DNA of 64,000 nt, from positions 14,272 to 78,271 of the forward strand of contig CAVYCN010000002.1 in NCBI GenBank assembly GCA_963767005.1, read 5' to 3'. The position numbers were made by a program, and so were the translations under genes. Source of the DNA: an uncultured Actinomycetes bacterium. GTDB taxonomy: Bacteria > Actinomycetota > Thermoleophilia > UBA2241. How positions within the stretch are numbered: the first letter of the stretch is position 1; every line of letters starts with the position of its first letter. The notes beneath the pieces are model-generated. The model searched no databases and was not told where the DNA came from. It saw nothing but the letters and a program-made list of their open reading frames with translations. Shown here piece by piece: positions 29,274-47,302 of the stretch.

Positions 29274-30587
29274 TCAGCCGCCGAGCTCGACGACCGTGTC
29301 GATGCCGTCGGCCACGGCCAGCACGCGGGCCCCGGGGCCGCGCACGCGGCGCGCCGCCGCGACGGCCTCGTCGATCGACTCAAAAGCGAGCAGGCCGCAG
29401 CCCTCGACGAGGTCGGGATCGCGCGCGCCGACAACGCCGACCCGGTACGTCGTCATGAGCTTGGCGACCATGTAGGCGCGCTGGCCGCCGGGGCCGAGCG
29501 GCTCGACGCAGCCGCGGGCGACCAGGTCCATCGGCCGCCTGGTCTCGGCCAGGAGCGCGCCGAAGTTGACCTCGCCGGGGCCGTCGCCGACGCCGAGCGG
29601 CAGCTCGGCGCAGAACGCGATCAGGCCGCCCGGCACGAGCACCGGCCGGGCCGACAGGCCGACATAGGTGGCGGCTCGCGAGGCCTGGTAGAGGCTGCGG
29701 TCCTTGGGCTCCGGCACGCCGGCGACCACCAGGTCGAACGGCGCGTCGTGGCGCCTCACCCAGGTGTCCCCGTGGTCGGCAACGAGGCGGCGCTGGGCGG
29801 CGGCGGGGTCGCCGGCGGCCACGCCGGCGACCCCGCCGCCGCCGTCCACGACGACGTTCAGCGCGAAGCGCAGGGCGGTGGCGGCGGCGATCTCGCGCAG
29901 CGCCTCCTGGAACGGGTTGCCGTCGAGCCGGCAGAGACGCACCTCGGGGCGGTCGAGGAACACGGGGTGGTGGGTCCAGGCGATCGTCTCGCGGCCGGCG
30001 CAGCCGACCGCCACCGCCTTCACGCCGCCTGAGAAGCCGGCGTAGAGGTGGGGCTCGACGATGCCGACCGCCACCACGAGGTCGGCGCCCGCGACCGCCT
30101 CTTCGATCACGATGGGGCCGCGGCCGGCGACCTCGCCCAGCGGCACGTTGCGCGGGCTCATGCCCTGGGCGTCGACCACACGCAGGCGCCGGGCGACGCC
30201 GGCGCCGACGAGGGTCTCGCGCTCGGCCGGGGTCGTCGTGCGGTGCAGCCCGCAGCCGATCACGACGCGGATGCGCTCGTCGCTCACCCCGGCCTGCGAG
30301 AGGCGCTCCAGCAGGGGCGGCAGGAGGGCCGCCACGGGGCAGCCACGGCTCGAGTCGGGCACCACGACGGCGACCTCGCGGGCGCCGGCGGCGAGGGCGG
30401 CGAGGGGTGGCGCCTGGATGGGCGCGTCGAGCGCCGCGGCCACCGCCGCCGGCAGGTCGCCGACCGCGGTCAGGAGCGCCGGTGGGTCGAAGGCGCAGGC
30501 CGCCGTCGCCGGCAGGCAGCGCCGGCCGGCCACCACCCAGGGGGCGCCGGCGAGGCCGTCCGCGCCGGGCGGCGGTGCGACGCTCAT
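29274..30587 (-). CDS. LarA-family (lactate racemase / DUF2088-type, nickel-pincer-nucleotide-dependent 2-hydroxyacid racemase-like) protein
   Basis: 438 aa; ...VEPHLYAGFSGGVKAVAVGC... matches the LarA HxxAGFSGGxK cofactor-tethering region as I recall it; ATGA overlap with the upstream mini-ORF. Confidence 0.65.
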   Translation of the reverse strand: MSVAPPPGADGLAGAPWVVAGRRCLPATAACAFDPPALLTAVGDLPAAVAAALDAPIQAPPLAALAAGAREVAVVVPDSSRGCPVAALLPPLLERLSQAGVSDERIRVVIGCGLHRTTTPAERETLVGAGVARRLRVVDAQGMSPRNVPLGEVAGRGPIVIEEAVAGADLVVAVGIVEPHLYAGFSGGVKAVAVGCAGRETIAWTHHPVFLDRPEVRLCRLDGNPFQEALREIAAATALRFALNVVVDGGGGVAGVAAGDPAAAQRRLVADHGDTWVRRHDAPFDLVVAGVPEPKDRSLYQASRAATYVGLSARPVLVPGGLIAFCAELPLGVGDGPGEVNFGALLAETRRPMDLVARGCVEPLGPGGQRAYMVAKLMTTYRVGVVGARDPDLVEGCGLLAFESIDEAVAAARRVRGPGARVLAVADGIDTVVELGG

Positions 30588-30801: not shown

Positions 30802-33045
30802 CTACGTGTATCGCCGCAGCAGCCGGGCGACGAGGTCGCGCAGCGCGGCGACCGCCGGTTCGGGGGCGAGCGGCACGGCCGCGCCGGCGAAGTGCAGGAG
30901 CTCGTGGGTGAGCCAGCGCTCGTCGACGTAGGGTTGGGTCGCCAGGCAGGCGCCGCCCGGAACGGGTACCGCGGGCCCGCGCTCGGCCACGTAGCGTGCG
31001 ACGTCGGGCGCGTACCAGACGAGCGCGCTGCGCGGCGCGTGGCGGGCTGCGCTGCGCACGCCCTCGCGGCGGTAGAGCTCGACCTCGACCTCGGGGCGCG
31101 GCGCGAAGCGCTCGCCGCGCAGCGCCGCCCGCTTGGTGGTGGCGATCCGGAAGGTGCGCGTGCCTTGCGAGCGCCGGCACCAGGCGACGTAGTACCACTC
31201 GCCCCGGGTGCGCACCAGCAGGTACGGCTCAACCGTCCGCGTCGTGGTCGTGCCGCTGCCCTCCGACCAGTACTCGATGTCGAGCAGACGGTGCTCGCCG
31301 ACGGCCGCGCTCACCGCGTCGAGGATCGGCTCGGCGGTGGGCAGCCGCTCGCCGGCGGCGACCGACGACGGCGCCGCGTGACGGGCGCGGCGCAGCTTCT
31401 GCGCCGCGCTGCGCAGCGCGGCGCCGTGCTCGATCGGGAGCTGCCCGCCGAGCACCTCGACGGCCAGCAGCAGCGTGTCGACCTGTAGCGGCGACAGGCG
31501 GGCCGGCCGCGCGAACGCCGAGCTCGCCACGTCGCAGGTGACGACCAGGTCCGGCCCCTTGACCTCGGCCCACACGAGGGTGCCCTCGCCGCCGAAGTTG
31601 ACGAGGTTGAGGAGCCGCACGTCGGCGCGCAGCTCGGCCGGCGTGGTGTCGAGCCGGGCGCAGAGCTCGGCGACGGGCACGGGCGTCTCGTCGGCGCCGC
31701 CGGCCGCCCGGCAGACGTCGTGCAAATAGGTGAGCAGCGTGGTCAGGCGGGTGAAGCGGTCGGCTTCGACCTGCCAGTCGTCGGCGCCGCCGGCCGGTGC
31801 CGAGTCGGCGCGGGGAGTGGGCGAGCTGGCGGGCTCGTCGAGCCCGGCGGCGGCGAGCAGCGCGGCGGCGCGGCCGGCCTCGAGCGGCGGCCGCTCGAGC
31901 CGCCCGGCCAGGCGGCCGAGCTGGGCGCGCAGCTCGGCGCGCAGCGCCGGCGGCTCGACGAGCTCGGCCGCCGCCCCCATCGAGAGCACCCACTCGATGA
32001 GCTGCTGAGCCGAGTCGTAGGCGGTCGAGAACAGGATGTCGGTCTCGTCGCCGGCGCCGCCCGTGCCCGCATCACCGCCGTCGCCGCCCGCCCCGGAGCC
32101 GTCACTGCCGCCCGTGCCGGCGTCGCGGCCACCCTCGCCGGCGTTCAGGCGCGCGTCGTCGCCGGCCGGCGCGATCGTGCCGCAGCGCGCGAAGTGGGCC
32201 TCGACCCACCAGGCCATGCCGGCCGCCACGCGCACGACGGCGTGGCCGACCGGCTCGCCGAGCTGCCAGGGCGGGCGGTCGAGGTAGCGGTCGATCGAGA
32301 AGTCGAGCGGCGCGCCGAAGTCGTGCGGCGCGCGCGTCGCGAAGGTCACGCGCGAGCGCAGGCGCGACAACCGGAAGGTGCGGATCGCCGTGCGCAAGTG
32401 GCAGAAGCCGACGAGGTACCACTCGTCGCCGACGAGCAGCAGGCCGTACGGGTCGACCGTGCGCTCGCGCTCCTCGTCGCGGCCGATCGAGTAGTAGAGG
32501 AAGGTCACCGTCTTGCCGGCGGCGACTGCCTGTTGCAGCTTGGGCAGGGCGCCGGCGGCGCGGCGCGCCTCGCGCTCGGGTAGCACGCTGATCGGTGTGG
32601 GGGCGGCCGGCGCGAGCAGCTCGGGCCGGCCGTGGGTCAGGCTGAGCAGGGCGAGGCGCAGCGGCTCGCTGTAGGCGAAGCGGTCCTCGAGCACGAACAG
32701 GCAGGCGGCGAGCGCCGAGAGCTCGGCCGGTGTGAGCTCGATGGCCGGCAGGTAGTAGGCCGACGCCGGCAGCGAGTAGAGCTCGGCCTCGCCACCCTCG
32801 CCGCCATCGGCGGCGATCGCGATGCCCAGGGCGGTGAGCTCGGCGCGGTCCTCGTAGAAGCGCCGCTTGAAGGCGTCGTCGCTCATGAGCGCATAGCCTT
32901 CGACGCGACGACGGATCTCGGCCGCGGTGGCGGGCCGCCCCGGGCGCGAGAGCAGGAAGGCGACGAGCGACAGCCGCCGGATCAGCTTGTCGGCGTCCTT
33001 CGAGAAGCCCTCCTCGCGGGGCGCGCCGCCCTGTCCGGGGCTCAC
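30802..33045 (-). CDS. pafBC: fused PafB/PafC-like transcriptional regulator (two HTH-WYL modules in one 747-aa polypeptide)
   Basis: module 1 HTH (DKLIRRLSLVAFLLSRPGRPATAAEIRRRVEGY) plus WYL (WYLVGFCHLRTAIRTFRLSRL); Gly/Asp-rich linker; module 2 (RFTRLTTLLTYLHDV...GGEGTLVWAEV) plus WYL (WYYVAWCRRSQGTRTFRIATT); GTG start overlaps the GNAT stop (GTGA). Confidence 0.7.
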   Translation of the reverse strand: MSPGQGGAPREEGFSKDADKLIRRLSLVAFLLSRPGRPATAAEIRRRVEGYALMSDDAFKRRFYEDRAELTALGIAIAADGGEGGEAELYSLPASAYYLPAIELTPAELSALAACLFVLEDRFAYSEPLRLALLSLTHGRPELLAPAAPTPISVLPEREARRAAGALPKLQQAVAAGKTVTFLYYSIGRDEERERTVDPYGLLLVGDEWYLVGFCHLRTAIRTFRLSRLRSRVTFATRAPHDFGAPLDFSIDRYLDRPPWQLGEPVGHAVVRVAAGMAWWVEAHFARCGTIAPAGDDARLNAGEGGRDAGTGGSDGSGAGGDGGDAGTGGAGDETDILFSTAYDSAQQLIEWVLSMGAAAELVEPPALRAELRAQLGRLAGRLERPPLEAGRAAALLAAAGLDEPASSPTPRADSAPAGGADDWQVEADRFTRLTTLLTYLHDVCRAAGGADETPVPVAELCARLDTTPAELRADVRLLNLVNFGGEGTLVWAEVKGPDLVVTCDVASSAFARPARLSPLQVDTLLLAVEVLGGQLPIEHGAALRSAAQKLRRARHAAPSSVAAGERLPTAEPILDAVSAAVGEHRLLDIEYWSEGSGTTTTRTVEPYLLVRTRGEWYYVAWCRRSQGTRTFRIATTKRAALRGERFAPRPEVEVELYRREGVRSAARHAPRSALVWYAPDVARYVAERGPAVPVPGGACLATQPYVDERWLTHELLHFAGAAVPLAPEPAVAALRDLVARLLRRYT

Positions 33046-33392
33046 GGCGCGGCGCCGAGGTCGAGGGCGAGCAGCGTGCGGTACTCGTCGGCGAAGCCAC
33101 GCCTGGCATAGAAGCCGCTGAGACCGTGGCTGAGCTCGCCGTCGGGCGTGACGGTGACGAGCAGCGCCTGGCAGCCCCGCTGCCGGGACCAGCGGGTCAC
33201 GGCGCCGATGAGGGCGCCGGCGATCCCGTGGCCGCGCGCGGCCGGCACCACATAGAGGTCCTCGAGCTCGGCCGAGCGGGTGTACTCGACCGAGGCGGTC
33301 CAGGCGGCGGTGGCGATGCCGACCGCCCGGCGGGCGCCGCCGTCCTCGCGAAAGGCAAGGACGGCGGCGCAGTGCACCGGGTCGGCCAGCAT
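33042..33392 (-). CDS. GNAT family N-acetyltransferase (annotated from first in-frame ATG; N-terminal region appears frame-disrupted)
   Basis: motif A LEDLYVVPAARGHGIAGALI; a good GNAT N-terminus continues upstream in the same frame without a canonical start, while the RBS-linked ATG at 33514 is in the +1 frame. Confidence 0.5.
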   Translation of the reverse strand: MLADPVHCAAVLAFREDGGARRAVGIATAAWTASVEYTRSAELEDLYVVPAARGHGIAGALIGAVTRWSRQRGCQALLVTVTPDGELSHGLSGFYARRGFADEYRTLLALDLGAAP

Positions 33393-33572
33393 CTCGGCGA
33401 GGCCGCGGCGCTGGGCGTCGGGCGGCGTCGTGAAGCCCTCCTCGCTGAAGAAGCGGCGCAGGAGGTCGACTGCGACCTCGACGGTCGCCTCGCCGACCGG
33501 TTCGATGACGACATCGGTCGTCGTGACCTCCTTCGGCTGTCCGCCGCCGGCCCGCCGGCGCGTCCGGCGTCG

Positions 33573-35030
33573 CTAGACGGCCTGGCGCTCGGCCGCGGCG
33601 ATGATCGCGTCGAACTCGCGGCCGAGGTCGTCGGGAAAGCCGATCGGCTCGGCCGCCAGGATCTCGCGCACCTTGTCCTGCGCCTTTTCGACCGTGCTCT
33701 TGCCGCCGGCCGCCTTCCAGGCCTCGTAGTTGCCCGTCTCGCCGAGCTTGGCCTGCCAGAGCTCGCGCACGTGCTTGCGGGTGTGCCCGTCGAACAGGTA
33801 GTTGCCGTTGAAGCCCATCTTGACGATAAGGTCGCGGGCGATCGTCTCGTCGGTCACCTCGACGCCGCGCAGCATGCGCTTGACCATGCCGAGGATCTCG
33901 TCGTCGACCACCATGTTCTCGAGGCACAGGATGCGCGAGCCGTCGAGCAGGCCGGTGCCGAACGTCACGTCGGCGCCGTTGGCGTAGGCCATGAACATGG
34001 CGAGCGCGTTCTCGTAGGCGCTCTGGATACCGGGCTCCTTGGCCGTGGTCGCACCGGCGCCGTACCAGGCCGGCACGCCGTAGAAGTCGGCCATGTGGCC
34101 CTGCACGGCGCGGATCAGGATGGCTTCGGGCGAGTTGCTCGCGTAGGCCCCGCTCCCCATGTACATCGCGGTCGGGCCGCCGCCGTGGATGACCGGCGCG
34201 CCCGGGCTGGCGAGCTGTACGAGCGTCGCGCCGCTCACGAACTCGGCGTTGTTCACGACGGCCGATCCAGCGATCGTGATGGGGCCGGTCGCGCCGAGGA
34301 TCGGCATGGGGTAGAAGCTGATCGGGATACCGGCGTCGGCGAGGGTGAGGGCGAGGTCCATGCCGAAGCGCTCCTGGTGGAGCGGGCTCACCGTGCAGAT
34401 GATGGCGGTGAAGGTCGGCCGCAGGCGCAGCTCGTCGCGGCCGCCGGCGAGGGCGACGCCCATCTCGATCAGGCTGCGCGCCTCCCAGTCCTCCTTGATA
34501 GAGACGACGATGCTGTGCTTGGCCGAGTTGCGCACGCAGGCGTCGAACTCGTGCAGCACGCGGCTCTGGATGGGGCAGTCCTGGGCCGAGACGACCGCGC
34601 TCGTCGCACTCACATTGTCGAGCGCCTGGACGACGCGGGCGCAGTTCTCGAGGTCTTCCTTGCGCGAGGGCCGTACCACGCCGGTGACCGGGTCGCGGTA
34701 GGACACGCCGCAGCCGTCGGACGAGATGTAGATGTGCTCGCCGTCGAGCGGCAGGTCGTACTCGGGCGTGCGGCCGCCCAGGGTGAACTCGTGCGGCACG
34801 CTGGCGAGCGCCCGCTCGACGACCGCGCCCGGGATCTTCGCGACCGAGGTCTCCCGGTCGACCGTGGCGCCGTGCTCCTCGAGCACGTCGAGCGCCCGCT
34901 GCGAGAAGAACATGACGCCGACGTTCTCGATCACGTCGAGCGTCGCCTCGTGGATCTGACGGATCTCGGCGGCGTCGAGGAGATCGAGCTTGACGCGCTT
35001 GCCGACATAGCAGCCGTCTGCGTAGGTCAT
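33573..35030 (-). CDS. MttB-superfamily methyltransferase (trimethylamine methyltransferase family, non-pyrrolysine type)
   Basis: 485 aa; collinear similarity to MttB/MtgB as I remember it (e.g. PTFTAIICTVSPLHQERFGMDLAL..., ...MGFNGNYLFDGHTRKHV...); no in-frame amber. Confidence 0.8.
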   Translation of the reverse strand: MTYADGCYVGKRVKLDLLDAAEIRQIHEATLDVIENVGVMFFSQRALDVLEEHGATVDRETSVAKIPGAVVERALASVPHEFTLGGRTPEYDLPLDGEHIYISSDGCGVSYRDPVTGVVRPSRKEDLENCARVVQALDNVSATSAVVSAQDCPIQSRVLHEFDACVRNSAKHSIVVSIKEDWEARSLIEMGVALAGGRDELRLRPTFTAIICTVSPLHQERFGMDLALTLADAGIPISFYPMPILGATGPITIAGSAVVNNAEFVSGATLVQLASPGAPVIHGGGPTAMYMGSGAYASNSPEAILIRAVQGHMADFYGVPAWYGAGATTAKEPGIQSAYENALAMFMAYANGADVTFGTGLLDGSRILCLENMVVDDEILGMVKRMLRGVEVTDETIARDLIVKMGFNGNYLFDGHTRKHVRELWQAKLGETGNYEAWKAAGGKSTVEKAQDKVREILAAEPIGFPDDLGREFDAIIAAAERQAV

Positions 35031-35271
35031 GGTGGTCGGTCCTTTCGGCGTGAAGGGGTGCGCGACGGGAGCGCTCGCGGCCGCCAGGCCCGGGCTCCCG
35101 CGCGTCCGACGGGACGGATGGTCCTACGCGGCGGGGTGGTCGCGCGCCGCCGACTTGAGGCGAGTCCGCGTCAAGAGCGCTCCTTCAGCTGGTGCCGGCC
35201 GCCCCGCTCCCTTCGCGGGGAGCGCCAGAAAGGTGTCGCCGACTGCCCAGAGTCTACATCGCCGCGAGCCG

Positions 35272-36717
35272 TCACTGGGCCGCCGCGGCGATGATCGCGT
35301 CGAACTCGCGGCCGAGGCCGGCGGGAAACTCGGGCACCGGTGCGGCGAGCAGCTCCTCGACCCGGGCGTGGGCCACGTCGGCCGTGCCGCGCGCGCCGGC
35401 CGTCTTCCAGGCCTCGTAGGTGCCGGTCTCGCCCAGCCTGGCCTGCCAGAGCTCGCGCACGTGCTTGCGGGTGTGGGAATCGAACAGGTAGTCGCCCTTG
35501 AAGCCCATCCGGGCGATGAGGTCGACGGCCAGGTGCTCGCGGTCGACCGTCACGCCCTGCAGCAGGCGGCTCACCATGCCGAAGACCTCGTCGGCCACGA
35601 CGAGTTCCTCGAGCGACATCTGCGTGACCGAGTCGAGCAGGCCGGCCCCGAACAGAAAATCGGCGCCGGCGAACAGCTCGAGCATGAGCCCGAGTGTGTT
35701 CTCGTAGGCCGCCTGCACGCCGGGCTCCTTGCCCTTCGTGCCGCCCCAGCCCAGGCCGGCGGGCATGCCGTAGAAGGCCGCCATCTGGCCCTGCACGGCG
35801 CGCAGCAGGAGCGCCTCGGGCACGTTGGCGAAGTAGGCTCCGGTGCGCATGAACAGGGCGGTCGGTCCGCCGGCGTGGATGAGCTTGGCGCCGGGGTGCG
35901 CGAGCTGGATCGCGGTGATGGCGCCCAGGATCTCGGCGTTGTTGACGACCGCGGTGCCGGCCGGCGTCACCGGCGCCGTCGCGCCCAGGATCGGCATGGG
36001 GTAGAGCATCATCGGGATGCCGGCCTCGGCGAGGGTGAAGGCGAGGTCCATGCCGAAGCGCTCCTGGTGCAGCGGGCTTACCGTGCACAGGATGACCGAG
36101 AAGGTGGGGCGCTCGTCGAGCTCGCGGGCGCCGCCGGCGACCGCCTCGGCCATGCGGATCAGGCTGCGCGCCTCCCAGTCCTCTTTGAGTGAGACGACGA
36201 TGGTGTGCTTGGCCGACGAGCGCATGCAGGCGTCGAACTCGTGCAGCACGCGCGTCTCGACCGGGCTGTCCTGGGCCGACACGAGGGCCGACGTGGCTGA
36301 GATGTTGTCGAGCCCCTGCACCACGCGGGCCGCCGCCGCGACGTCGGCCTTGGTCGAGGGCCGCACCGAGCCGTCGTGCTCGCGCACGAACGTGGCGCAG
36401 CCGTCGGAGGTGATGTAGGCGTGCTCGCCGTCGAGCGGCAGGTCGTACTCGGGGGTGCGGCCGCCGAGCGTGAAGCGCCGCGGCAGGGTGGCCAGGGCCC
36501 GCTCGACCACCTCGGGCGGCAGCTTGGCGACCGTGGTCTCGTAGTCGACCTCGGCGCCGGCCTCGGCCAGCACGTCGAGGGCGCGCTTCGAGTAGTAGAC
36601 GCAGCCGACCTCGTGCAGGATGTCGAGCGAGGTCTCGTGGATGCGGCGCACCTCGTCTGGCGAGACGATCTGGAGCGGCCGGCGCGAGCCGACGCGGCGG
36701 GTATCGGCGTGGGTCAC
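35272..36717 (-). CDS. MttB-superfamily methyltransferase, tandem paralog (about 70% identity to the upstream copy)
   Basis: 481 aa; AAGGAGA RBS plus GTG start; same conserved blocks as the first copy. Confidence 0.8.
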   Translation of the reverse strand: MTHADTRRVGSRRPLQIVSPDEVRRIHETSLDILHEVGCVYYSKRALDVLAEAGAEVDYETTVAKLPPEVVERALATLPRRFTLGGRTPEYDLPLDGEHAYITSDGCATFVREHDGSVRPSTKADVAAAARVVQGLDNISATSALVSAQDSPVETRVLHEFDACMRSSAKHTIVVSLKEDWEARSLIRMAEAVAGGARELDERPTFSVILCTVSPLHQERFGMDLAFTLAEAGIPMMLYPMPILGATAPVTPAGTAVVNNAEILGAITAIQLAHPGAKLIHAGGPTALFMRTGAYFANVPEALLLRAVQGQMAAFYGMPAGLGWGGTKGKEPGVQAAYENTLGLMLELFAGADFLFGAGLLDSVTQMSLEELVVADEVFGMVSRLLQGVTVDREHLAVDLIARMGFKGDYLFDSHTRKHVRELWQARLGETGTYEAWKTAGARGTADVAHARVEELLAAPVPEFPAGLGREFDAIIAAAAQ

Positions 36718-37829
36718 GGGTTCTCCTTGCGGTCGGGACGGACGACGGCGCCGGCGCTTGCCGGCGTACGGGTGACGAAGCGGCGGGAGACGAACGGCGA
36801 GGTCACGGCGCGCACGAGGGCGTCGTAGTCGACGGCGAAGGCAACGGTGTCGCCCGGGCGCAGCTCGCGCGGCGTGACGAGCACGGCCACGTCGCTCGTC
36901 ATGCCGGCGACCCAGGCCCCGTCGAGCAGCGGCCGCAGGCCACCGGGCTCGCAGTCGCGCCGGCCGAGGGCGATCAGCGTGTACCAGGCGTCGTGGTCGG
37001 GCAGCGCCGTGTCGGGGGTGTGGCCGAACGCGTCGCGGCCGGCGGGGCCGACCGGCGCCGGCGGCTTGCGCGACGACTCGAGCACGGTCGCGGTGAGCAC
37101 GGGGTCGAAGCGTTCGAGGCCGGCGAGCGTCTCGCCCGAGACGAAATCGTAGCCGTAGAGGAGCCCGCCGCCGGCGCGCAGCTCGGTGCGAAACCGCGGC
37201 GTGAAGTCGTCGAGGCAGCTGAGGCAGACGGTCCCGCCGACGGACAGCAGCGGAGCGTCGAGGTCGGCGGCGTCGGCGACCGTGGCCAGGACGTCCTCGG
37301 CCGCGCGCAGCAGCGCGACGCTGGGGAGCTGGCCCGACAGGCAGGCGAAGTTCACGGCGATGCCGCCGAGGGCGGTGCCGGGCAGGCCGGCGAGGCGGCT
37401 CGCCGCCTCGCCGGCCTGCCCGGGCAGCACGCCCTCGCGGCGATCGCCGAGGTCGACGGTGAGCAGCAGCTCGATCGGCAGGCCTGGCGCGTGGCGGCCG
37501 AGCTCCTCGGCCGTGCCCGGGTCGCACAGCAGGATTCGTTCGGCGACCTGGGCCGCCGTCACGACGTCGTGGGGTCCGGGGGCGCGCAGCAGCGTGAGCG
37601 GCACGAGGGCGTGAGCGGCGAGCCGCACCAGCGCGGGCAGGCGCGAGTCGGCGAGGCCGGTGCAGCCGGCCTCGAGCATCGCCTGCCCGACGGCCGGCTC
37701 GCCGTCGACGGCCTTGGTCACGCCGACGAGCTCGATGCCGCGGGCGAGCAGGCGCGCGGCGAGGCTGCCCGTAGCGGCCGCGATGGCGTCGAGGTCGAAG
37801 GTCAGCTCAGGTTCCGTGGCGGTCCTGCG
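36714..37829 (-). CDS. alanine-racemase-fold (fold-type III PLP, YhfX-like) protein; start codon unresolved
   Basis: LTFDLDAIAAATG...ELVGVTKAVDG (candidate PLP lysine) N-terminal barrel; stop overlaps the MttB paralog start; no ATG/GTG/TTG near the expected N-terminus (the nearest GTG at 37928 would add a poly-Arg leader). Confidence 0.5.
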   Translation of the reverse strand, partial: RRTATEPELTFDLDAIAAATGSLAARLLARGIELVGVTKAVDGEPAVGQAMLEAGCTGLADSRLPALVRLAAHALVPLTLLRAPGPHDVVTAAQVAERILLCDPGTAEELGRHAPGLPIELLLTVDLGDRREGVLPGQAGEAASRLAGLPGTALGGIAVNFACLSGQLPSVALLRAAEDVLATVADAADLDAPLLSVGGTVCLSCLDDFTPRFRTELRAGGGLLYGYDFVSGETLAGLERFDPVLTATVLESSRKPPAPVGPAGRDAFGHTPDTALPDHDAWYTLIALGRRDCEPGGLRPLLDGAWVAGMTSDVAVLVTPRELRPGDTVAFAVDYDALVRAVTSPFVSRRFVTRTPASAGAVVRPDRKENP

Positions 37830-37928
37830 GTCGCGGAAACGCCGGCGGCGGCGCCGCCGGCGGGGACAGTATAATCGGACGGCGACGACGCCCCCAAATC
37901 GGGCCCAACGGTCTCGGCCGGACGGCAC

Positions 37929-39437
37929 GTGCGGCACGACACGACGAGGCAGGTGACGAGCGAGATGACCCAGCCCGACGGCGACAGCTCCGCACGAGGT
38001 GCTCACCTCGCGCTCGACGGCGACCTCACCGAGCGGGACGGCCACCTCGTGCTCGACGGGGTCGACCTCGTCGAGCTCGCTCGCACCAACCCGACGCCGT
38101 TCTTCGTGTACTCGCCGCGGCGCATCCGCTGGAACGTGAGCAGCCTCGTGAACGCCTTCACCCGGCGTCACCTCGACACCGAGGTGTTCTTCGCCAGCAA
38201 GGCCTGCTCGAACCTCTGGTTCCTGGGCGAGGTGCGGCGTGCCGGCGTGAACGTCGAGGTGAACTCGGGCGGCGAGCTCTGGAAGGCGCAGCGTGCCGGC
38301 TTTGCCGGCCGCCAGATCGTGTTCAACGGCGTCGCCAAGACCCGCGACGAGATCGCCGCCGCGTTGCGCGCCGGCGTGCGCGGCTTGACCGTCGACTCGC
38401 TGTTCGAGCTCGAACGCATCGCCGAGGTCGCCGCCGAGCTCGGCCTTGCGGCGCCGGTCGACCTGCGCATCGACGTCGACGTGCCGACGCTCACACACCC
38501 CGGCCTCGTGACGGCCCACGGGGGCAAGGCCGGCATCGACTGGGACGACGCGCTCGACGCCTTCGCCTACGCGGCCGGCCACCGGGGGCTCGAGCCGCGC
38601 GGCCTCCACCTGCACATCGGCTCGCAGATCACGGCGGTCGAGCCCTACCGCACGGCGGTCGAGAAGGCGCTCGACCTGATCGACGCGGTCGAGGCGAGCG
38701 GCGTGCGGCTCGAGCGGCTCAACACGGGCGGCGGTTTTGCCGTGCCGTACCGTGACCGGCCGGTCTGCGAGCCGGTCGACTACTTCTGCGCGCCGCTCAC
38801 GATCGACGACTACGCCGAGGCCGTCTGCGAGCCGGTGGAGCGTCGCCGGCCCGGCTTCAAGCTCCTGCTCGAGCCGGGCCGCTTCATCGCCGGCTCCACC
38901 GCGCTGCTCGTGACGACGGTCGAGAGCGCCAAGGTGAAGGGTCGCCGCGATGAGACCGGGCGGCGCGTCGGCGACGAGCGCTGGCTCACGATCGACGCCG
39001 GCTTCAACACGCTGCTCGAGCACACCAACTACCGCTGGTACTATCGCACGAGGGTGGCCAGCAGGGCGGGCGAGCCGGCCGACACGCCGTTCCGCCTGGC
39101 CGGGCCGCTGTGCGACGGTGGCGACGTGTTCGCCGGCGACGACGACACGCCGTACCGGCTCCTACCGGCCGCCACCGCGCCGGGCGACGTCGTCGTCTTC
39201 TTCGACGCGGGCGCCTACACCCTCGAGATGATGAACCCCTACAACGCCCGTCCGCAGGCGGCGGCGTTCGCCGTCGAGCGCGGGGCGGCGCGTCTCATCC
39301 GCCGGGCGGACAGCCTCGAGGACCTCGTCGCCCACGACGTGCCGCTCCGGCGCTCGGGCGCGGTCCGCGGCAAGCCGGGCGCGGCGCGTGGCAAGCGGGG
39401 TGCGAAGGCCTCGCCCCAGGTCGCCGACCCGGCCTGA
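37929..39437 (+). CDS. Orn/DAP/Arg decarboxylase family 2 (LysA/ODC-like fold-type III PLP decarboxylase) with Lys/Arg-rich C-terminal tail
   Basis: FASKAC (PLP lysine), HIGSQI, GGGF, CDGGD motifs; alternative ATG at 37966; TATAAT at 37869-37874 upstream. Confidence 0.75.
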   Translation: MRHDTTRQVTSEMTQPDGDSSARGAHLALDGDLTERDGHLVLDGVDLVELARTNPTPFFVYSPRRIRWNVSSLVNAFTRRHLDTEVFFASKACSNLWFLGEVRRAGVNVEVNSGGELWKAQRAGFAGRQIVFNGVAKTRDEIAAALRAGVRGLTVDSLFELERIAEVAAELGLAAPVDLRIDVDVPTLTHPGLVTAHGGKAGIDWDDALDAFAYAAGHRGLEPRGLHLHIGSQITAVEPYRTAVEKALDLIDAVEASGVRLERLNTGGGFAVPYRDRPVCEPVDYFCAPLTIDDYAEAVCEPVERRRPGFKLLLEPGRFIAGSTALLVTTVESAKVKGRRDETGRRVGDERWLTIDAGFNTLLEHTNYRWYYRTRVASRAGEPADTPFRLAGPLCDGGDVFAGDDDTPYRLLPAATAPGDVVVFFDAGAYTLEMMNPYNARPQAAAFAVERGAARLIRRADSLEDLVAHDVPLRRSGAVRGKPGAARGKRGAKASPQVADPA

Positions 39438-39545
39438 CCCGCCGCGCCGGCGTCGTGTGCCGGGCGCCTGACGAGCGCACCGGCCCGGCCATCTCCTTCA
39501 CGAGGCGACGCTCGGCGACACTTGACTGTGCCGGGCGCGACTCGG

Positions 39546-40718
39546 TCAGACGGGCCGCGCGAGAACGCGCTCGGTGGTCGGTGCGACGGTGATCCGCAGG
39601 GCGACGTCGCAGTAGACCCGGGTGTTGGGCAGCGCGCGACGGTGGAGCTGCGCGGGCTGCGCGAACGTCGCGGCAGGCATGCTCACGTCGGCGCCGGCTC
39701 GCCGCCAGGCCGACACGAGCTCGTCTCGGCGCTCGCGCGAGGGCGCGAGCGCGATCAGGGACCGCCAGTTCGGACACGCGCCGACGCCGTCGGCACCCGC
39801 GCCGAGCACGGTGAGGCCGGCGGCCGTCAGACGCTCAGAGATCGCGGCCGCCAGATCGCGGCGACGGGCGACGACGTCGGCGAGCTCGGTCAGGGCGCGG
39901 GCACCGGCCGCGGCCGCCGCTTCGTCGATGCGATAACCGTTGACCATGCCGTCGGCGCAGTCGTGCGAGAAGCACTCGTCGTCGGTGGCGATCACGGTCG
40001 AGCGGAGCGCGGTCAGGTGACGCTCGAGCTGCTCGGAGGCGGTCGAGACGAGCCCTCCCGAGGAGGGGCCGTCGCCGAAGGCGAACACGGCCAGCGCACC
40101 AGCGCCACCCACCGAGCGACCGTCGACGGTCGCCCCGAGCGCGGCCCGGCAGTCCTCGATGAGCGTGACGCCGCGGTCGTCGGCGACGCGCTGCAGGCCG
40201 TCGGTGAGCGCCGGATAGCCGGCCTCGTGCACGGTGAGGACGGCGCGCGTGTCCGGCCCGACGAGGCGGTTGGCGTCGGCGGCTTCGAGGAACGGGCGGT
40301 CGGGCGCTTCGATGTCGGCGAAGACGGGCCGCCCCCCGGCAAGGATGACCAGGTTGGCGGTCGCCGCCGGCGAGACGGCGGGCAGGATGACCTCGCCGCC
40401 GTCGCTCGCGTCGACTGCGAGCAGGGCCAGGTGCAGGCCGGCCGAGCCGCCGGCGACGGGCACGACGCGACGCCCCAGGAAGGCCTCGGCGGCGTCCTGC
40501 AGCCGCATGGCCGCCTGTCCCTGGGTGAGCCAGCCCGACTTGAGGGCGCCGGCCGCGAGGTCGTCGGCGCCCGACTCGACGTCGTCGCCGGCCCGTCTGC
40601 GTGGGAACCGCACTACCTTGTCGTCGCCGGAGTCCACACTGACCGTCCCCTCGGAATGAGCCTGAAGTCCGCGCACGGACTGCGTACCCGTTCTCGCTGG
40701 AAACAAGGCGTACGACAC
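39546..40718 (-). CDS. DegT/DnrJ/EryC1/StrS-family aminotransferase homolog
   Basis: N-terminal ...LKSGWLTQGQ... and VPVAGGSAGLHLAL motifs; the region expected to hold the Schiff-base lysine reads FAFGDGPSSGG, so the lysine may be missing; alternative GTG start about 35 codons downstream. Confidence 0.7.
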   Translation of the reverse strand: MSYALFPARTGTQSVRGLQAHSEGTVSVDSGDDKVVRFPRRRAGDDVESGADDLAAGALKSGWLTQGQAAMRLQDAAEAFLGRRVVPVAGGSAGLHLALLAVDASDGGEVILPAVSPAATANLVILAGGRPVFADIEAPDRPFLEAADANRLVGPDTRAVLTVHEAGYPALTDGLQRVADDRGVTLIEDCRAALGATVDGRSVGGAGALAVFAFGDGPSSGGLVSTASEQLERHLTALRSTVIATDDECFSHDCADGMVNGYRIDEAAAAAGARALTELADVVARRRDLAAAISERLTAAGLTVLGAGADGVGACPNWRSLIALAPSRERRDELVSAWRRAGADVSMPAATFAQPAQLHRRALPNTRVYCDVALRITVAPTTERVLARPV

Positions 40719-43792: not shown

Positions 43793-44236
43793 ATGAACAT
43801 CTCCGCCAAGAGCAAGTACGCGGTGCGCGCGCTGGTCGAGCTGGCCGAGCGTACGCAGGGCCAGCCCGGCCAGCTCGTCCGGCTCACCGACGTGGCCAAG
43901 GCGCGCAGCATCCCGCTGCAGTTCCTCGAGCAGCTCTTCGCCGGGCTGCGCCGGGCCGGCATCGTCAAGAGCCGGCGCGGCGCGAGCGGCGGCTTCGTGT
44001 TCGCGCGTCCGCCCGGCCAGGTCACGGTGCTCGACGTGGTCGAGACCCTCGACGGGCTCGTCTCGCCGGCGATCTGTACGCAGGGCGAGTGCGAGCGCAT
44101 CGAGGAGTGTGGCGCGGCGGCGGTGTGGCTCGAGGCCAAGGAGGCGCTCGAGCAGGTGCTGCGTCAGACGACGATCGCCGACCTCGCCGAGCGCGAGCTC
44201 GCCCGCGCCCCCCACGAAGCCATGTACTACATCTGA
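43793..44236 (+). CDS. Rrf2 family transcriptional regulator (IscR/CymR-like)
   Basis: N-terminal w[21 protein letters not shown]..., GxxGGF motif, 3 Cys ([12 protein letters not shown]). Confidence 0.8.
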
Positions 44237-44255
44237 CAGCCAGCCGGAGGACCGT

Positions 44256-45209
44256 GTGAAGATCGCAGACGACATCACCCAGTTGATCGGCGCTACGCCG
44301 CTCGTGCACCTGCGCGCCCTCTCGGAGCGCAGCGGCGCCACCATCGTCGGCAAGCTCGAGTCGTTCAACCCGGGTGGCAGCGTCAAGGACCGCATCGGCC
44401 TGTCGATGATCGAGGCGGCCGAGCGCGCCGGCATGATCGCGCCGGGTCGCACGACGATCGTCGAGCCGACCAGCGGCAACGCCGGCATCGCCCTGGCCAT
44501 GGTCACCGCCGCGCGCGGGTATCGCCTGATCATCACCATGCCGGAGACCTTCAGCGTCGAACGTCGTACGCTGCTACGCGCGTACGGTGCCAAGCTCGTG
44601 CTCACGCCCGGTCCCGAGGGCATGCGCGGCGCGATCGAGCGCGCCGCCGAGGTCGTCGCCGAGACGCCCGACAGCTTCATGCCGCAGCAGTTCGAGAACC
44701 CGGCCAACCCCGCGATCCACCACGACGCGACCGGCGACGAGATCTGGCGCGACACCGAGGGCGCCGTCGACGTCTTCGTGGCCGGCATCGGCACCGGCGG
44801 CACCATCACCGGCGTGGGTCGGCTCCTCAAGGAGCGCAAGCCCGCGGTCAGGGTCGTAGGGGTCGAACCCATCGAGTCGACCGTCCTGGCCGGAGGGCAG
44901 CCGGGGCCGCACCGCATCCAGGGTATCGGCGCCGGCTTCGTGCCCGCCGTGCTCGACACCGCGGTCTACGACGAGGTGCTCGCCGTGACCGGCGAGCAGG
45001 CGTTCGAGACGGCGCGCGCCCTGGCGGCCGGCGAGGGCCTCCTCGTCGGCATCTCTGCCGGCGCGAACGCGTTCGTCGCCGCCGAGGTCGGTGCCCGACC
45101 GGAGAACGCGGGCAAGCTCATCGTCACCATCCTGTGCGACACCGGCGAGCGCTACCTGTCGACCACCCTGTTCGCCGAGCAGAGCGCCTCGGCGATGATC
45201 GGCGGCTGA
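44256..45209 (+). CDS. cysK: cysteine synthase A (O-acetylserine sulfhydrylase)
   Basis: PLP-binding lysine motif [28 protein letters not shown]; GGAGG RBS plus GTG. Confidence 0.85.
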
Positions 45210-46084
45210 TGGCCGACGCCGTGCACGAAGGCGCCGTGGGCGCCTCGCTGATCGCCGCCGTCGGCGCGCTGCTCGAGCCGCTCGAGCGGGCGCTGCGGCC
45301 GCTCGAGCACGTCTGCGTCGCCTTCTCCGGCGGCGTCGACTCGAGCGTCGTGCTGGCGGTCGCCGTGCGCGTGCTCGGAGCGTCGCGGGTGCTCGCCTTT
45401 ACGGCCGTGTCCGAGACCTACCGCGACGACGAGCTCGTGGCGGCCCGCGCCCTCGCGGACTCGCTCGGCGTGCGTCACCTCACCTGGCAGACCCGCGAGC
45501 TCGACGACCCGCGCTTCGTGGCCAACACGCGCGATCGCTGCTACGCGTGCAAGGCGACGCTGCTCGAGGCCATGGAGCGGGCGGCGGCCGAGGCCGGTGC
45601 GACCGCCCTGGTCGACGGCGCCAACCGCGACGACCTGGGCGACGAGCGCCCCGGCATGCGGGCCGCCGCCGAGCGCGGCGTACGGCACCCGCTGATCGAG
45701 GCCGGGCTCGGCAAGGCGGCCGTGCGCACCCTCGCCCGTGCCCTCGACCTGCCGGTCTGGAGCAAGCCCGCCGAAGCCTGTCTGGCCTCGCGCGTCGCGT
45801 ATGGCGAGGCCGTCACGGCCGACAAGCTGCGTCAGGTGGCGGCGGCCGAGGACGTGCTGCGCGAGCTCGGTCTGGGCCCTGAGCTGCGCGTCCGTCACCA
45901 CGGCGACGTCGCCCGTGTCGAGGTGCCGGCCGAGCAGGTCGAGCGCGCCGCCGGCGCCGAGGTGCGGACGGCCGTCGACCGCCGCCTGCGGGCGCTCGGC
46001 TTCACGTACGTCGCCCTCGACCTGCAGGGCTTTCGCTCGGGCAGCATGAACGAAGCCCCACGACCCGAAAGGAGCGCCCCGTGA
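45208..46084 (+). CDS. LarE-type PP-loop ATP pyrophosphatase (TIGR00268 family sulfur transferase)
   Basis: PP-loop AFSGGVDSS; CxxC (DRCYACKA) plus downstream EACLASRV Cys aligned with the LarE active-site loop; ATGA overlap with cysK stop and GTGA overlap with cysE start. Confidence 0.7.
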
Positions 46085-46884
46085 ACCGCCCGCTCGCCAC
46101 GATGGCCGATGCCGCCGAGGGCGCGTGGTGCGCCGTGCGGGGCGGCCGGCTGCGGCACTTCGTGGCGCGCATGCGCCGCGACGTGCAGGCCGTCAAGGAG
46201 CGCGATCCGGCGGCCACCAGTTCGTTCGAGATCGTCACCTCGTACTCGGGTCTGCACGCCCTCTGGCTGCACCGCGTCGCCCATCCTCTGTACCGCTGCG
46301 GTGTGCCGATCGTGCCGCGCTGGCTCTCGCAGTTCAACCGGTTCCTGACCGGCATCGAGATCCACCCCGGGGCGCAGGTCGGCGAGGGCTTCTTCATCGA
46401 CCACGGCTCGGGTGTCGTGATCGGCGAGACCACCGAGATCGGCGACAACGTCACCCTCTACCAGGGCGTCACCCTCGGCGGCACAGGCAAGGAGCACGGC
46501 AAGCGCCACCCCACGCTCGGCGACAACATCGTGGTGGGCTCGGGAGCGAGCGTGCTCGGCTCGATCAGGATCGGCGACAACGCCAAGATCGGCTCGGGCA
46601 GCGTGGTCGTGCACGACGTGCCGGCCAACGCCACCGTGGTCGGCAACCCGGGTCACCCGGTGGTGGTCGACGGTCAGCGCGTCGGCATCCCCGACATCGA
46701 CTACACCCACCTGCCCGACCCGGTGGCCGAGGCGCTCAAGTGCGTCGTCGATCGCATCATCGCCCTCGAGCAGGAGCTCGACGAGATCGACCCGGCGCGC
46801 AAGGATCGCCGCCGCTCGCGCATTGCCGTCAACCAGGCGACCCTCGACCGCCTGCTGCACTTCAGCGACGGGGCCGGGATCTAG
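46081..46884 (+). CDS. cysE: serine O-acetyltransferase
   Basis: left-handed beta-helix hexapeptide repeats, DHGSGVVIGETTEIGDNV... Confidence 0.85.
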   Translation: MNRPLATMADAAEGAWCAVRGGRLRHFVARMRRDVQAVKERDPAATSSFEIVTSYSGLHALWLHRVAHPLYRCGVPIVPRWLSQFNRFLTGIEIHPGAQVGEGFFIDHGSGVVIGETTEIGDNVTLYQGVTLGGTGKEHGKRHPTLGDNIVVGSGASVLGSIRIGDNAKIGSGSVVVHDVPANATVVGNPGHPVVVDGQRVGIPDIDYTHLPDPVAEALKCVVDRIIALEQELDEIDPARKDRRRSRIAVNQATLDRLLHFSDGAGI

Positions 46885-46971: not shown

Positions 46972-47280
46972 GTGAGCCACGTCCGACGTCTTGTCCTCGA
47001 CGTCCTCAAACCCCACATGCCGACCATGCTCAACCTGGCCGACAAGCTCGGCGACCTCGAAGGCATCGCCGGCGTCGACATCACGCTCTTCGAGATCGAC
47101 AACAAGGTCGAGAACATCAAGATTACCCTCGAGGGCAGCGACATCGACTACCAGGAGGTCGCCGAGGTCATCCAGGATTCCGGCGGCAGCATCCACTCCA
47201 TCGACAAGGTGTCCACCGGCCGCCAGCTCATCGACGAGGCCGAGACACCTCAGGACGCCGGCGCCCGCTGGATGCGGTGA
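46972..47280 (+). CDS. DUF211 family protein
   Basis: VRRLVLDVLKPH...GVDITLFEID...IKITLEG.DIDY...GGSIHSIDKV. Confidence 0.6.
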   Translation: MSHVRRLVLDVLKPHMPTMLNLADKLGDLEGIAGVDITLFEIDNKVENIKITLEGSDIDYQEVAEVIQDSGGSIHSIDKVSTGRQLIDEAETPQDAGARWMR

Positions 47281-47302
47281 CCGCCGCCTCGTCGCGTAGC
47301 AG

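Follow-up and report, generated by a model that had tools for sequence, protein, structure and literature searches.

A racemase-coupled MttB operon of uncultured Thermoleophilia hints at an unrecognized methylated basic amino acid as substrate

Non-pyrrolysine MttB homologs number in the thousands, and the few substrates of such enzymes that are known to us are all simple betaines, from anaerobes or marine bacteria. Two genes of this kind lie beside genes for PLP-fold enzymes in an uncultured member of the Thermoleophilia, and the locus raises the question of what the encoded methyltransferases act on. All genes of the cluster were located in the window, that is, the whole stretch of 64,000 nt that was analyzed (Table 1), and a third-position GC content of 0.89 to 0.96 backs their coding frames. 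A sequence-only reading of this DNA had described two tandem non-pyrrolysine MttB paralogs, a fold-III PLP gene whose stop overlaps the start of MttB2, and a decarboxylase-fold gene transcribed divergently from that PLP gene and convergently with a DegT homolog. This layout was borne out, and the profile searches that the reading had proposed gave matches to PF06253, Ala_racemase_N, the Orn/DAP/Arg-decarboxylase fold, and PF01041; the identity between the two MttB proteins, put at about 70%, was measured as 64% over 480 amino acids. Values of dN/dS indicate purifying selection on all of the genes.

Table 1. Coordinates of the features in the 64,000-nt window
Feature	Position	Strand	Basis
MttB1, non-pyrrolysine MttB-superfamily methyltransferase homolog	33573..35030	-	PF06253, E 9e-87
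MttB2, non-pyrrolysine MttB-superfamily methyltransferase homolog	35272..36717	-	PF06253, E 1e-86
OrnR-family (Cys/Lys type) fold-III PLP racemase homolog	36714..~37823	-	Pfam Ala_racemase_N, E 4e-15
DokD-like D-ornithine/D-lysine decarboxylase homolog	37929..39437	+	Orn/DAP/Arg-decarboxylase fold; closest structure 6n2h
DegT/DnrJ/EryC1-family homolog without Schiff-base lysine	39546..40718	-	PF01041, E 4e-49, 168 bits
GNAT acetyltransferase, downstream of MttB1	33042..33524	-	Pfam Acetyltransf_1
Micro-ORF, 16 codons, putative leader peptide	35124..35174	-	Conserved peptide and Shine-Dalgarno sequence
GC-rich hairpin, putative terminator/attenuator	35061..35104	-	Folding; between micro-ORF and MttB1 ribosome-binding site
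Racemase-decarboxylase divergent intergenic region	37824..37928	.	TATAAT at 37870-37875 (+)

The gene order in the operon is OrnR-family racemase, MttB2, the micro-ORF with the hairpin, and MttB1, with the decarboxylase gene divergent. Read directly, the TGA stop codon of the racemase gene and the GTG start codon of the MttB2 gene overlap as GTGA, with AAGGAG upstream, which supports cotranscription. The racemase start probably lies somewhere in 37823 to 37874, and the 407-amino-acid gene call in the database is probably too long. In the divergent intergenic region, the TATAAT hexamer, also read directly, precedes the decarboxylase start by about 54 nt; a consensus promoter scan of this region gave no match satisfying the two-hexamer rule.

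Both MttB proteins are clear members of PF06253, with scores of 291.5 and 291.0 bits (cutoff, 25) that cover profile positions 28 to 479 of 500. The best-scoring solved relative of MttB1 is the pyrrolysine-dependent MttB of Methanosarcina, which goes with MttC and MtbA (PDB 7xcl; full-length alignment, E 3e-63), and residues 10 to 482 also align with MtgB (9yce/2qne; E 1e-61). A pyrrolysine-type trimethylamine methyltransferase was nevertheless rejected for both proteins because they score below the 525-bit equivalog cutoff of TIGR02369 (MttB1, 418 bits; MttB2, 383 bits) and because neither gene contains an in-frame UAG, unlike Methanosarcina MttB. The column that holds pyrrolysine in M. barkeri MttB is occupied here by Ala in MttB1 and Gly in MttB2, as it is in 59 of 60 MttB1 orthologs and in all 56 MttB2 orthologs, respectively. 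In their PF06253 membership, TIM-barrel family, and lack of pyrrolysine, the two proteins resemble the known non-pyrrolysine systems, namely, MtgB/MtgC/MtgA of Desulfitobacterium hafniense, MtgBCD of Ruegeria pomeroyi, and MtcB, MtpB, MtyB, and MthB of Eubacterium limosum. Membership in this family predicts corrinoid-methylating activity on a methylamine substrate.

That substrate appears to differ from glycine betaine, which MtgB binds through Y97, R312, H348, and F356 (PMC13080624). None of these four residues is kept in the alignment of the clade: the Y97 column contains Gly or Cys, the R312 column contains an invariant Trp in MttB1 and Gly in MttB2, the H348 column contains a gap or Gly, and the F356 column contains Ser in MttB1 and Val or Ser in MttB2. 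The two paralogs thus have distinct pocket residues, and their invariant active-site-loop residues are distinct as well. A 12-sequence alignment of the clade shows Cys107 and Cys165 to be invariant; neither has a counterpart in M. barkeri MttB. Among the 1,471 clusters (50% identity; E ≤1e-30) that a search for MttB homologs yielded, the clade stands apart, since no representative of another cluster exceeds 42% identity to it, and it is about 30% identical to pyrrolysine-type MttB and about 29 to 30% identical to MtgB. Unlike the MtgB systems, this separate clade is coupled to a PLP racemase. The MttB of the single-copy loci L054 and L065 clusters with MttB1, which by this sequence grouping is the paralog type retained where a genome has one copy. 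Values of dN/dS are 0.16 to 0.20 for MttB1 and 0.08 to 0.23 for MttB2.

The sequence-only reading had made much of a missing corrinoid partner, and indeed none is nearby. A Pfam scan of the approximately 55 genes of the window revealed no B12-binding, MtrH, URO-D, or pterin-binding gene and no mttC, mtbA, ramA, or pyl gene near the MttB pair, and no gene of these types lies in the 10 kb beyond either window end on the source contig (about 84 kb in total), where a corrinoid protein/MT2 pair would have spoken against the reading. In 74 genomes, no gene for a B12-binding, MtrH, or MetH-domain protein was found within 10 kb on either side of the pair, and across 77 loci of the lineage (1.40 Mb in all), searches whose positive controls worked detected neither a corrinoid protein nor an MT2 or activase. 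As an anomaly, however, this absence does not hold up: R. pomeroyi, an aerobe, carries its mtgB genes apart from mtgC and mtgD (PMC12478193), so methyltransferase genes without an adjoining corrinoid-protein gene, as seen here, are not anomalous in themselves. The nearest outgroup MttBs are located in canonical corrinoid clusters; one (P0243) adjoins a polar-amino-acid ABC transporter, a class-III aminotransferase, and a corrinoid protein, and another (P0247) has a corrinoid protein and MtrH adjacent.

The racemase is a distant member of the OrnR family, with ornithine or another basic or methylated amino acid as its predicted substrate. Its best NCBIfam match is the ornithine racemase Orr (NF040742, racem_Orr), at 138 bits against a cutoff of 480, and a full-length alignment with Salmonella OrnR shows 30% identity. 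The hallmarks of OrnR are the PLP lysine K36, the PLP arginines R129 and R220, N161 replacing the stacking His, and the catalytic C164 (PMC13397332). All five have aligned counterparts in the racemase in a pairwise alignment, and the motifs GVTK (K36) and NF[AG]CL (N161 and C164) are invariant across 52 orthologs. Housekeeping alr was rejected because no NCBIfam alr model matches and the OrnR Cys/Lys pair is present. The dN/dS values are 0.21 to 0.38.

The decarboxylase, in turn, is closest to Salmonella DokD. It is 38.7% identical to this protein and scores 311 bits with the DokD structure 6n2h versus 148 to 205 bits with true diaminopimelate (DAP) decarboxylase structures and 147 to 148 bits with Mycobacterium tuberculosis LysA. 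In TmDAPDC, R285 and E315 bind the distal L-centre of meso-DAP (PMC8277567), and from the published residue numbers, we mapped these residues to the Arg of the DAP decarboxylase motif RPxxY and the Glu of CESGD. In the decarboxylase studied here, RPxxY is replaced by LLEH (LSDS in DokD), with Glu where DAP decarboxylases have the distal-carboxylate Arg, and CESGD is replaced by CDGGD, the same as in DokD; both LLEH and CDGGD are conserved in 50 orthologs. The protein passes the lysA model TIGR01048 (328.6 bits; cutoff, 297.9), and automated annotation therefore probably names it lysA, while it falls below the cutoff of the DokD model NF052544 (362 versus 700 bits). Despite the TIGR01048 pass, lysA was rejected because the RPxxY Arg and CESGD are lost and DokD is closer; a lysA-passing decarboxylase without the DAP-binding residues is an annotation pitfall. 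[quoted passage not shown] As judged from sequence, the locus described here likewise combines a fold-III racemase of the Cys/Lys type with a fold-III decarboxylase that is D-specific and stereoinverting, and this decarboxylase, like DokD, has CDGGD and, at the position of the DAP decarboxylase arginine, an acidic residue. It differs in that the proteins are only 30% (racemase) and 39% (decarboxylase) identical to their Salmonella counterparts and fall below the respective NCBIfam cutoffs, that the two genes are divergent and permeases are absent, and that the racemase gene is translationally coupled to two MttB genes. The OrnR-DokD pair is hence already known from Salmonella; the new element is the combination with MttB genes.

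Only uncultured Thermoleophilia carry the cluster, which we found in 74 genome loci and 22 metagenome contigs. The racemase-MttB pairing alone is near universal among its parts: an OrnR-family gene adjoins the MttB genes in 69 of 71 loci and is absent or displaced away in the other 2, whereas the decarboxylase gene is present in 55 of 64 loci and missing in 9. In 4 of the 69 loci, the adjacent racemase is a type-2 paralog of 30 to 34% identity that keeps all five hallmarks, and the pairing has therefore been retained even where the racemase itself was displaced. Of 47 genomes, 43 retain the GTGA overlap, and most have a spacer of 10 to 21 nt between MttB2 and MttB1. Adjacency alone is nonetheless weak evidence and partly phylogenetic inertia, because the entire neighborhood of 30 kb is syntenic throughout the lineage; almost all of the 74 loci share a collinear block that runs from CysK to a DNA-alkylation-repair gene. 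Outside the lineage, homologs of the OrnR family have no MttB neighbors.

The view of three PLP enzymes as a unit has to be given up, given the 9 loci without a decarboxylase gene and the nature of the DegT homolog. As had been suspected, the latter lacks the Schiff-base lysine: in an alignment with ArnB, the Lys188 segment (HAIKN) corresponds to a 4-residue deletion (FAFGD....GPSSGG), and the same lysine-less motif is found in 8 of 8 orthologs (dN/dS, 0.27 to 0.32). The gene is limited to the closest subclade and missing from most related genomes, and it is probably peripheral and not part of the pathway. The GNAT gene is also found only in the closest subclade, with eight orthologs. Over 162 amino acids in a single frame, its product is 80% identical to the ortholog in L061. 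No canonical start codon precedes the ATG at 33392, yet the open frame extends, with conservation, to about 33524, and AAGGAGG lies at 33528 to 33534.

Between the two MttB genes lies a micro-ORF that encodes LTRTRLKSAARDHPAA (consensus, M-K-x-x-RLKS[SA]ARDHP-x-x) and is preceded by an AAGGAG Shine-Dalgarno sequence. It is present in 13 genome loci, in one copy per genome, and it is likewise present in 22 of the 22 metagenome contigs that a degenerate DNA pattern retrieved, each time between MttB2 and MttB1. In its 10-codon core, variable sites fall at codon positions 1, 2, and 3 in 2, 0, and 8 cases, respectively. A hairpin is predicted at the equivalent place in all 11 sequences that were folded, with Z-scores of only -0.4 to -3.0 and, because of indels, no consensus fold; in relatives, the U-tract after the hairpin can pair with the MttB1 Shine-Dalgarno sequence (GAAAGGAG). 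Metabolite-sensing leader peptides include SpeFL upstream of speF and TnaC upstream of tnaA. Like these, the micro-ORF is short, has a conserved peptide sequence, and is followed by a terminator-like hairpin and a gene of amine or amino acid metabolism. Unlike them, it is located inside an operon between two genes, not at the operon 5' end, and it has no sequence similarity to either peptide except for a D-H-(R)-P resemblance to the TnaC C terminus. By this analogy, micro-ORF and hairpin are a candidate new leader-peptide control element, with putative stalling and termination.

Within this analysis, the MttB clade is the first with a built-in hint to its substrate class: the coupling to an OrnR-type enzyme and the adjoining DokD-type decarboxylase point to methylated basic amino acids, which gives a short, testable list of candidate substrates. 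We therefore tentatively favor, as a reading that is possible rather than probable, a module for the catabolism of a side-chain-methylated basic amino acid, with the corrinoid protein elsewhere and a leader attenuator. The substrate would be a basic amino acid whose alpha-amino group is free and whose side-chain nitrogen is methylated and probably quaternary; the candidates that suggest themselves are N-epsilon-trimethyllysine and N-delta-trimethylornithine. In such a scheme, the MttB enzymes would transfer a methyl group to Co(I) of a corrinoid protein whose gene would lie at another site in the genome, an arrangement known from R. pomeroyi; inversion at the alpha-carbon would fall to the racemase, and release of the diamine to the D-specific decarboxylase. 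In the subclade of the window, the micro-ORF and hairpin may control MttB1 expression as a leader-peptide attenuator. It counts against this pathway that the known non-pyrrolysine MttB enzymes, as far as we are aware, remove just a single methyl from their quaternary amine, which would leave a product other than plain ornithine or lysine; additional demethylase genes are missing from the vicinity, and no transporter for a methylated basic amino acid is evident at the locus.

It is conceivable, if doubtful, that the locus combines two unrelated functions, a stand-alone route from L-ornithine via D-ornithine to putrescine and MttB demethylation of an unrelated quaternary amine osmolyte, with adjacency reflecting only local synteny and shared transcription. 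The collinear block would be expected to look as it does, the MttB pair persists in the loci that lost the decarboxylase or the racemase, OrnR-family genes elsewhere manage without MttB neighbors, and the Salmonella module works without MttB; against this stand the conserved 4-nt stop/start overlap, the four genomes that swapped the racemase for a distant paralog at the same position beside MttB, and the absence of the Salmonella permeases. That the PLP genes represent nothing more than housekeeping alr and lysA, next to the MttB genes by chance, is barely credible; the TIGR01048 score of the decarboxylase speaks for it, while the lost RPxxY arginine, CDGGD in place of CESGD, the far higher score with DokD than with M. 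tuberculosis LysA, and, for the racemase, the OrnR Cys/Lys pair without an alr-model match speak against it.

An unlikely alternative is the biosynthetic direction, in which the product is a diamino compound that is D-configured, N-methylated, or both (for example, a compatible solute, a polyamine derivative, or a component of the cell envelope) and MttB runs in reverse, from methyl-corrinoid to amine. The MtgB reaction is reportedly reversible in vitro (work credited to Ticak et al., 2014), but we know of no MttB-family enzyme that acts biosynthetically in vivo. The surroundings, with an amidase-domain protein, the DegT homolog, the GNAT, and a dcw cluster region, would suit such a role, as would the view of the OrnR authors that the Salmonella OrnR-DokD route is likely biosynthetic (PMC13397332); yet DegT and GNAT are restricted to one subclade, and no ligase or export gene is conserved alongside the core. 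Very unlikely, too, is that the paralogs form a self-contained methyl-transfer pair or perform different chemistry for which a dedicated corrinoid protein is unnecessary. The lack of B12-binding, MtrH, and MetH-domain genes near MttB in the 74 genomes and in the 84 kb of source contig, the distinct loop residues of the paralogs, and the clade-invariant Cys107 and Cys165 agree with this idea, but the closest outgroups are found in canonical corrinoid systems, a corrinoid partner encoded at another site has precedent in aerobes and the search here covered the loci, and L054 and L065 have one MttB each. Its boldest version, which we regard as a long shot, would be a racemase-fed MttB pair that needs no dedicated corrinoid protein, with a D-ornithine/D-lysine-type substrate or cofactor and an RLKSxARDHP nascent-peptide sensor tuning the second enzyme; if true, such a pair would add to the MttB superfamily a new mode of action, one used by aerobic soil bacteria.

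Metagenomes from peat and soil commonly contain this lineage, and one close relative is the metagenome-assembled genome bog_752, which, from its name, we take to be a member of the genus Bog-752. In a study of Stordalen Mire, this genus was among the most active mtxB expressers (PMC10805028).

The five genes named in the sequence-only reading are all real and have the boundaries proposed for them, and their arrangement had been described correctly. The stop codon of the fold-III PLP gene lies inside the GTG start of MttB2, where the overlapping TGA is read as ccGTGAcc with AAGGAG 8 nt upstream; the decarboxylase-fold gene is divergent from the fold-III gene, and the DegT homolog is convergent with the decarboxylase gene. 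Both methyltransferase genes belong to the MttB family, as had been proposed, but they are 64% identical to each other rather than about 70%.

The fold-III gene had been labelled YhfX-like; judged by its sequence, it is instead a member of the OrnR ornithine racemase family. A 2025 study of OrnR described a Lys/Cys catalytic pair (K36 and C164), as opposed to the Lys/Tyr pair of alanine racemase, and reported that N161 stands where the stacking histidine would be and that PLP is bound by R129 and R220 (PMC13397332). The racemase homolog of the window is 30% identical to Salmonella OrnR over its full length, all five hallmark residues align, and the motifs GVTK and NF[AG]CL do not vary among 52 orthologs. 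The decarboxylase homolog scores 328.6 bits against the NCBIfam lysA equivalog model, above the cut-off of 297.9, and would therefore probably be named a diaminopimelate decarboxylase by automated annotation. This is an annotation trap, as the protein is DokD-like and lacks the diaminopimelate distal-site arginine. Its best solved relative is the Salmonella D-ornithine/D-lysine decarboxylase DokD (311 bits, 38.7% identity), and true LysA proteins reach at most 205 bits (147-148 bits for Mycobacterium tuberculosis LysA). In the Thermotoga diaminopimelate decarboxylase, diaminopimelate is bound at its distal carboxylate by R249 and R285 and at its amino group by E315 (PMC8277567). By our own mapping, R285 is the Arg of RPxxY and E315 the Glu of CESGD; the two sites read LLEH and CDGGD in the window's decarboxylase and in 50 orthologs, and LSDS and CDGGD in DokD. 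The DokD-type scores, LLEH, and CDGGD rule out LysA even though the lysA cut-off is passed, and the possibility that the PLP genes are housekeeping lysA and alr, which would have made them independent of the cluster, is contradicted by this residue-level and similarity evidence. The two PLP genes thus read as an OrnR-like plus DokD-like pair, a combination with a precedent in a small Salmonella operon. PDB entry 10li, labelled a diaminopimelate decarboxylase, gives an alignment almost identical to that of DokD.

The suspected loss of the Schiff-base lysine from the DegT homolog was borne out by alignment with ArnB, which places a four-residue deletion exactly at Lys188. Since the lysine is also missing in all eight orthologs and a dN/dS of 0.27 to 0.32 indicates purifying selection, the loss is a retained feature and not an error, and the protein may be a pseudo-enzyme or may have changed its function. 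The DegT gene lies downstream of an Amidase_6 gene.

MttB relatives were sought among 1.84 billion cluster representatives, and paralogs were grouped by identity clustering. The whole MttB clade falls into one cluster; the next representatives are at most 42% identical, and identity to both Pyl-MttB and the glycine betaine methyltransferase MtgB is about 30%. Glycine betaine is bound in MtgB by Y97, R312, H348, and F356 (PMC13080624), and in the alignment none of these four residues is kept in the clade: the R312 position is an invariant Trp in MttB1 and Gly in MttB2, and the F356 position is Ser in MttB1 and Val or Ser in MttB2. At the pyrrolysine column, MttB1 has Ala and MttB2 has Gly. Of all genes in the cluster, these two are under the tightest constraint (dN/dS, 0.08 to 0.23). 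Two of the nearest outgroups sit in canonical corrinoid systems, the second with a corrinoid protein and MtrH adjacent. The nearest, P0243 (41% identical), lies on the JGI metagenome contigs L083/L084 in a dense methylamine island, which contains amber-split Pyl-type mttB and mtbB, three non-Pyl MttB homologs (one fused to a tRNA_edit domain), a corrinoid protein, a polar-amino-acid ABC transporter, and a class-III aminotransferase. A third MttB homolog, only distantly related (29 to 36% identical), is present in many related genomes beside a DNA-alkylation-repair (PF08713) gene; the tandem pair is about 8 kb away, and here too no corrinoid gene is nearby. In the window, the PF08713 gene is present and the third MttB absent.

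The absence of a local corrinoid partner held up. The queries run against the window and against 77 lineage loci (1.40 Mb) were the B12, pterin, and homocysteine domains of E. coli MetH, two corrinoid proteins of the MtxC type, one MtrH, and the B12-binding motif DxHxxG..SxL..GG, and none matched a partner. As a positive control, the MtxC queries recovered the B12 domain of MetH at about 1e-29. No B12-binding, MtrH, URO-D, or pterin-binding gene is encoded in the window or in the 10 kb past either end, and no partner is encoded within 10 kb in any lineage genome examined. A conventional betaine demethylation locus, with its corrinoid gene just outside the window, was thereby rejected. In the aerobic bacterium Ruegeria pomeroyi, MtgC and MtgD are not linked to MtgB1 and MtgB2 and double in methionine synthesis (PMC12478193), and hence local absence is no proof of corrinoid independence. 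The missing gene is therefore less remarkable than first thought, and the coupling to a racemase and the micro-ORF described below are more so.

All close homologs of MttB1 belong to uncultured Actinomycetota and Thermoleophilia. When one genome per species was scanned, 74 loci were recovered, labelled as Thermoleophilia, Actinomycetes, or Actinomycetota MAGs except for two whose proteobacterial labels probably reflect binning errors; the genome collection returned this Thermoleophilia clade only, so that no distant contexts were visible. The main rival to a common pathway holds that the MttB pair merely neighbours the OrnR/DokD module and has a separate function. Adjacency alone is weak evidence against this, because the entire neighbourhood is collinear across the 74 loci: CysK, Rrf2, two Gate-domain proteins, Amidase_6, (DegT), decarboxylase, racemase, MttB2, MttB1, (GNAT), PafBC-like, LarA-like, M50 protease, SpoIIE phosphatase, and DNA-alkylation repair, with DegT and GNAT confined to the window's own subclade. 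Stronger evidence of linkage comes from finer features. The 4-nt overlap of the racemase gene with MttB2 persists in 43 of 47 genomes, and most have 10 to 21 nt between MttB2 and MttB1. An orthologous racemase is present in 65 of the 71 loci having enough upstream DNA, an OrnR-family paralog with all hallmarks (30 to 34% identical) in four more (three in the same slot and one inverted), and no adjacent OrnR-family gene in two; the decarboxylase was found in 55 of 64 loci. A second-type racemase, 30 to 34% identical to that of the window and 36 to 40% to Salmonella OrnR, stands in for the usual racemase in five genomes, either in the racemase slot (L038, L048, and L049) or inverted in the decarboxylase slot (L031 and L074), where it takes the place of the decarboxylase as well. 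In two genomes there is only one MttB, which is of the MttB1 type. These gene-presence counts tolerate fragments in loci from Microflora Danica (MFD) MAGs, in many of which tblastn finds genes in several same-strand pieces (L016, L018, L037, L038, L063, L070, L071, L074, L076, and others), consistent with frameshift errors of long-read assembly.

A plasmid collection yielded 18 OrnR-family matches (23 to 31% identity), and in the three contexts inspected, on replicons from other phyla (Phaeobacter, Ruegeria, and Shinella), there was no MttB neighbour; likewise, a literature search on MttB in Actinobacteria or Streptomyces turned up no description of the present cluster. The joining of racemase and MttB genes is peculiar to the Thermoleophilia lineage. 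The novelty lies in the union of a known racemase/decarboxylase pair with an isolated MttB subfamily, a combination restricted to one uncultured lineage. The identities of the components are well supported, and from them we infer an integrated racemase-decarboxylase-MttB pathway. A substrate fitting all three enzyme types would offer the PLP racemase and decarboxylase a free alpha-amino acid group, the acidic distal site of the decarboxylase a cationic distal group to bind, and the MttB enzymes a methylated nitrogen; N-epsilon-trimethyllysine and N-delta-trimethylornithine would each combine these properties. Trimethylornithine lipids have been reported from peat-bog planctomycetes, and many MAGs of this clade come from that kind of habitat, which makes trimethylornithine a lead to the substrate and not a test of it.

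The MttB2-MttB1 spacer measures 72 to 347 nt in the window's subclade (241 nt in the window itself) and contains a 16-codon micro-ORF with the consensus MKxxRLKS[SA]ARDHPxx. In 13 loci its core, RLKS[SA]ARDHP, has a single copy per genome, and a degenerate DNA pattern for the core matched 22 metagenome contigs, in every case between MttB2 and MttB1 of this clade. The variable sites of the ten core codons number 2, 0, and 8 at codon positions 1, 2, and 3, a clear coding signature. Single-sequence folds predict a hairpin after the micro-ORF stop in every genome folded, followed in several by a U-tract capable of pairing with the MttB1 Shine-Dalgarno sequence. The z-scores of the hairpin are modest against the GC-rich background, and because hairpin lengths differ through indels, no consensus fold of the spacer from micro-ORF to MttB1 was obtained. 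Such an arrangement points to a possible leader-peptide attenuator. No cobalamin or other riboswitch was detected in the cluster at gathering or E<=1 thresholds, where only chance hairpin matches appeared, and a sigma-70 promoter scan gave no match.

Features of the window and, in the last row, of related loci
Feature	Position	Strand	Remarks
tmRNA gene	2449-2798	+	Rfam RF00023, 146.7 bits, full length
DNA-alkylation-repair gene	24456-25256		PF08713
LarA-family nickel-pincer racemase homolog	29274-30500	-	under all NCBIfam LarA-subfamily cut-offs
Fused PafB/PafC-like regulator	30802-32940	-	two WYL and WCX domains plus HTH_PafC, about 700 aa
GNAT gene	33042 to about 33524	-	downstream of MttB1; conserved open frame, AAGGAGG ribosome-binding site
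MttB1	33573-35030	-	PF06253, E 9e-87
GC-rich hairpin	about 35061-35104	-	about 15-20 nt past micro-ORF stop
16-codon micro-ORF	35124-35174	-	between MttB2 and MttB1; TTG start, AAGGAG upstream; encodes LTRTRLKSAARDHPAA
MttB2	35272-36717	-	PF06253, E 1e-86
OrnR-family racemase homolog	36714 to about 37823	-
Near-perfect palindrome	37379-37422		within racemase coding region
DokD-like decarboxylase homolog	37929-39437	+
DegT homolog	39546-40718	-
Apparent sulfur/cysteine cluster	43793-46884	+	Rrf2 regulator, CysK, PP-loop ATPase-like, serine-acetyltransferase-like hexapeptide protein
DUF211 and VIT1-family genes	46972-47923		next after sulfur/cysteine cluster
dcw cell-division cluster	right end of window		mraW, ftsI, murE, murF, mraY
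Third MttB	18904-20433 of L001/L010		also in L014, L016-L019, L024, L030, L031, L033, L034, L037, L046, L053, L068-L071, L074, L075

The window is core chromosome. Its G+C content of 73% makes ORF lists rich in spurious frames; coding frames were chosen by third-position GC, and the map rests on Pfam searches of about 55 genes. The PafB/PafC-like regulator and the LarA homolog come after the operon in nearly all genomes. In the sulfur/cysteine cluster, CysK exceeds the TIGR01139 cut-off, and the PP-loop ATPase-like protein belongs to the ThiF family in relatives. The first ATG, GTG, or TTG of the GNAT gene occurs only at 33392, from where the ORF listing gives 116 aa; a frameshift is ruled out by the single conserved open frame, which has no canonical start codon, and the gene may use a non-canonical start. 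The palindrome within the racemase gene matches miRNA-precursor hairpin models equally on both strands with scores far below gathering and is probably a chance or structural hairpin.
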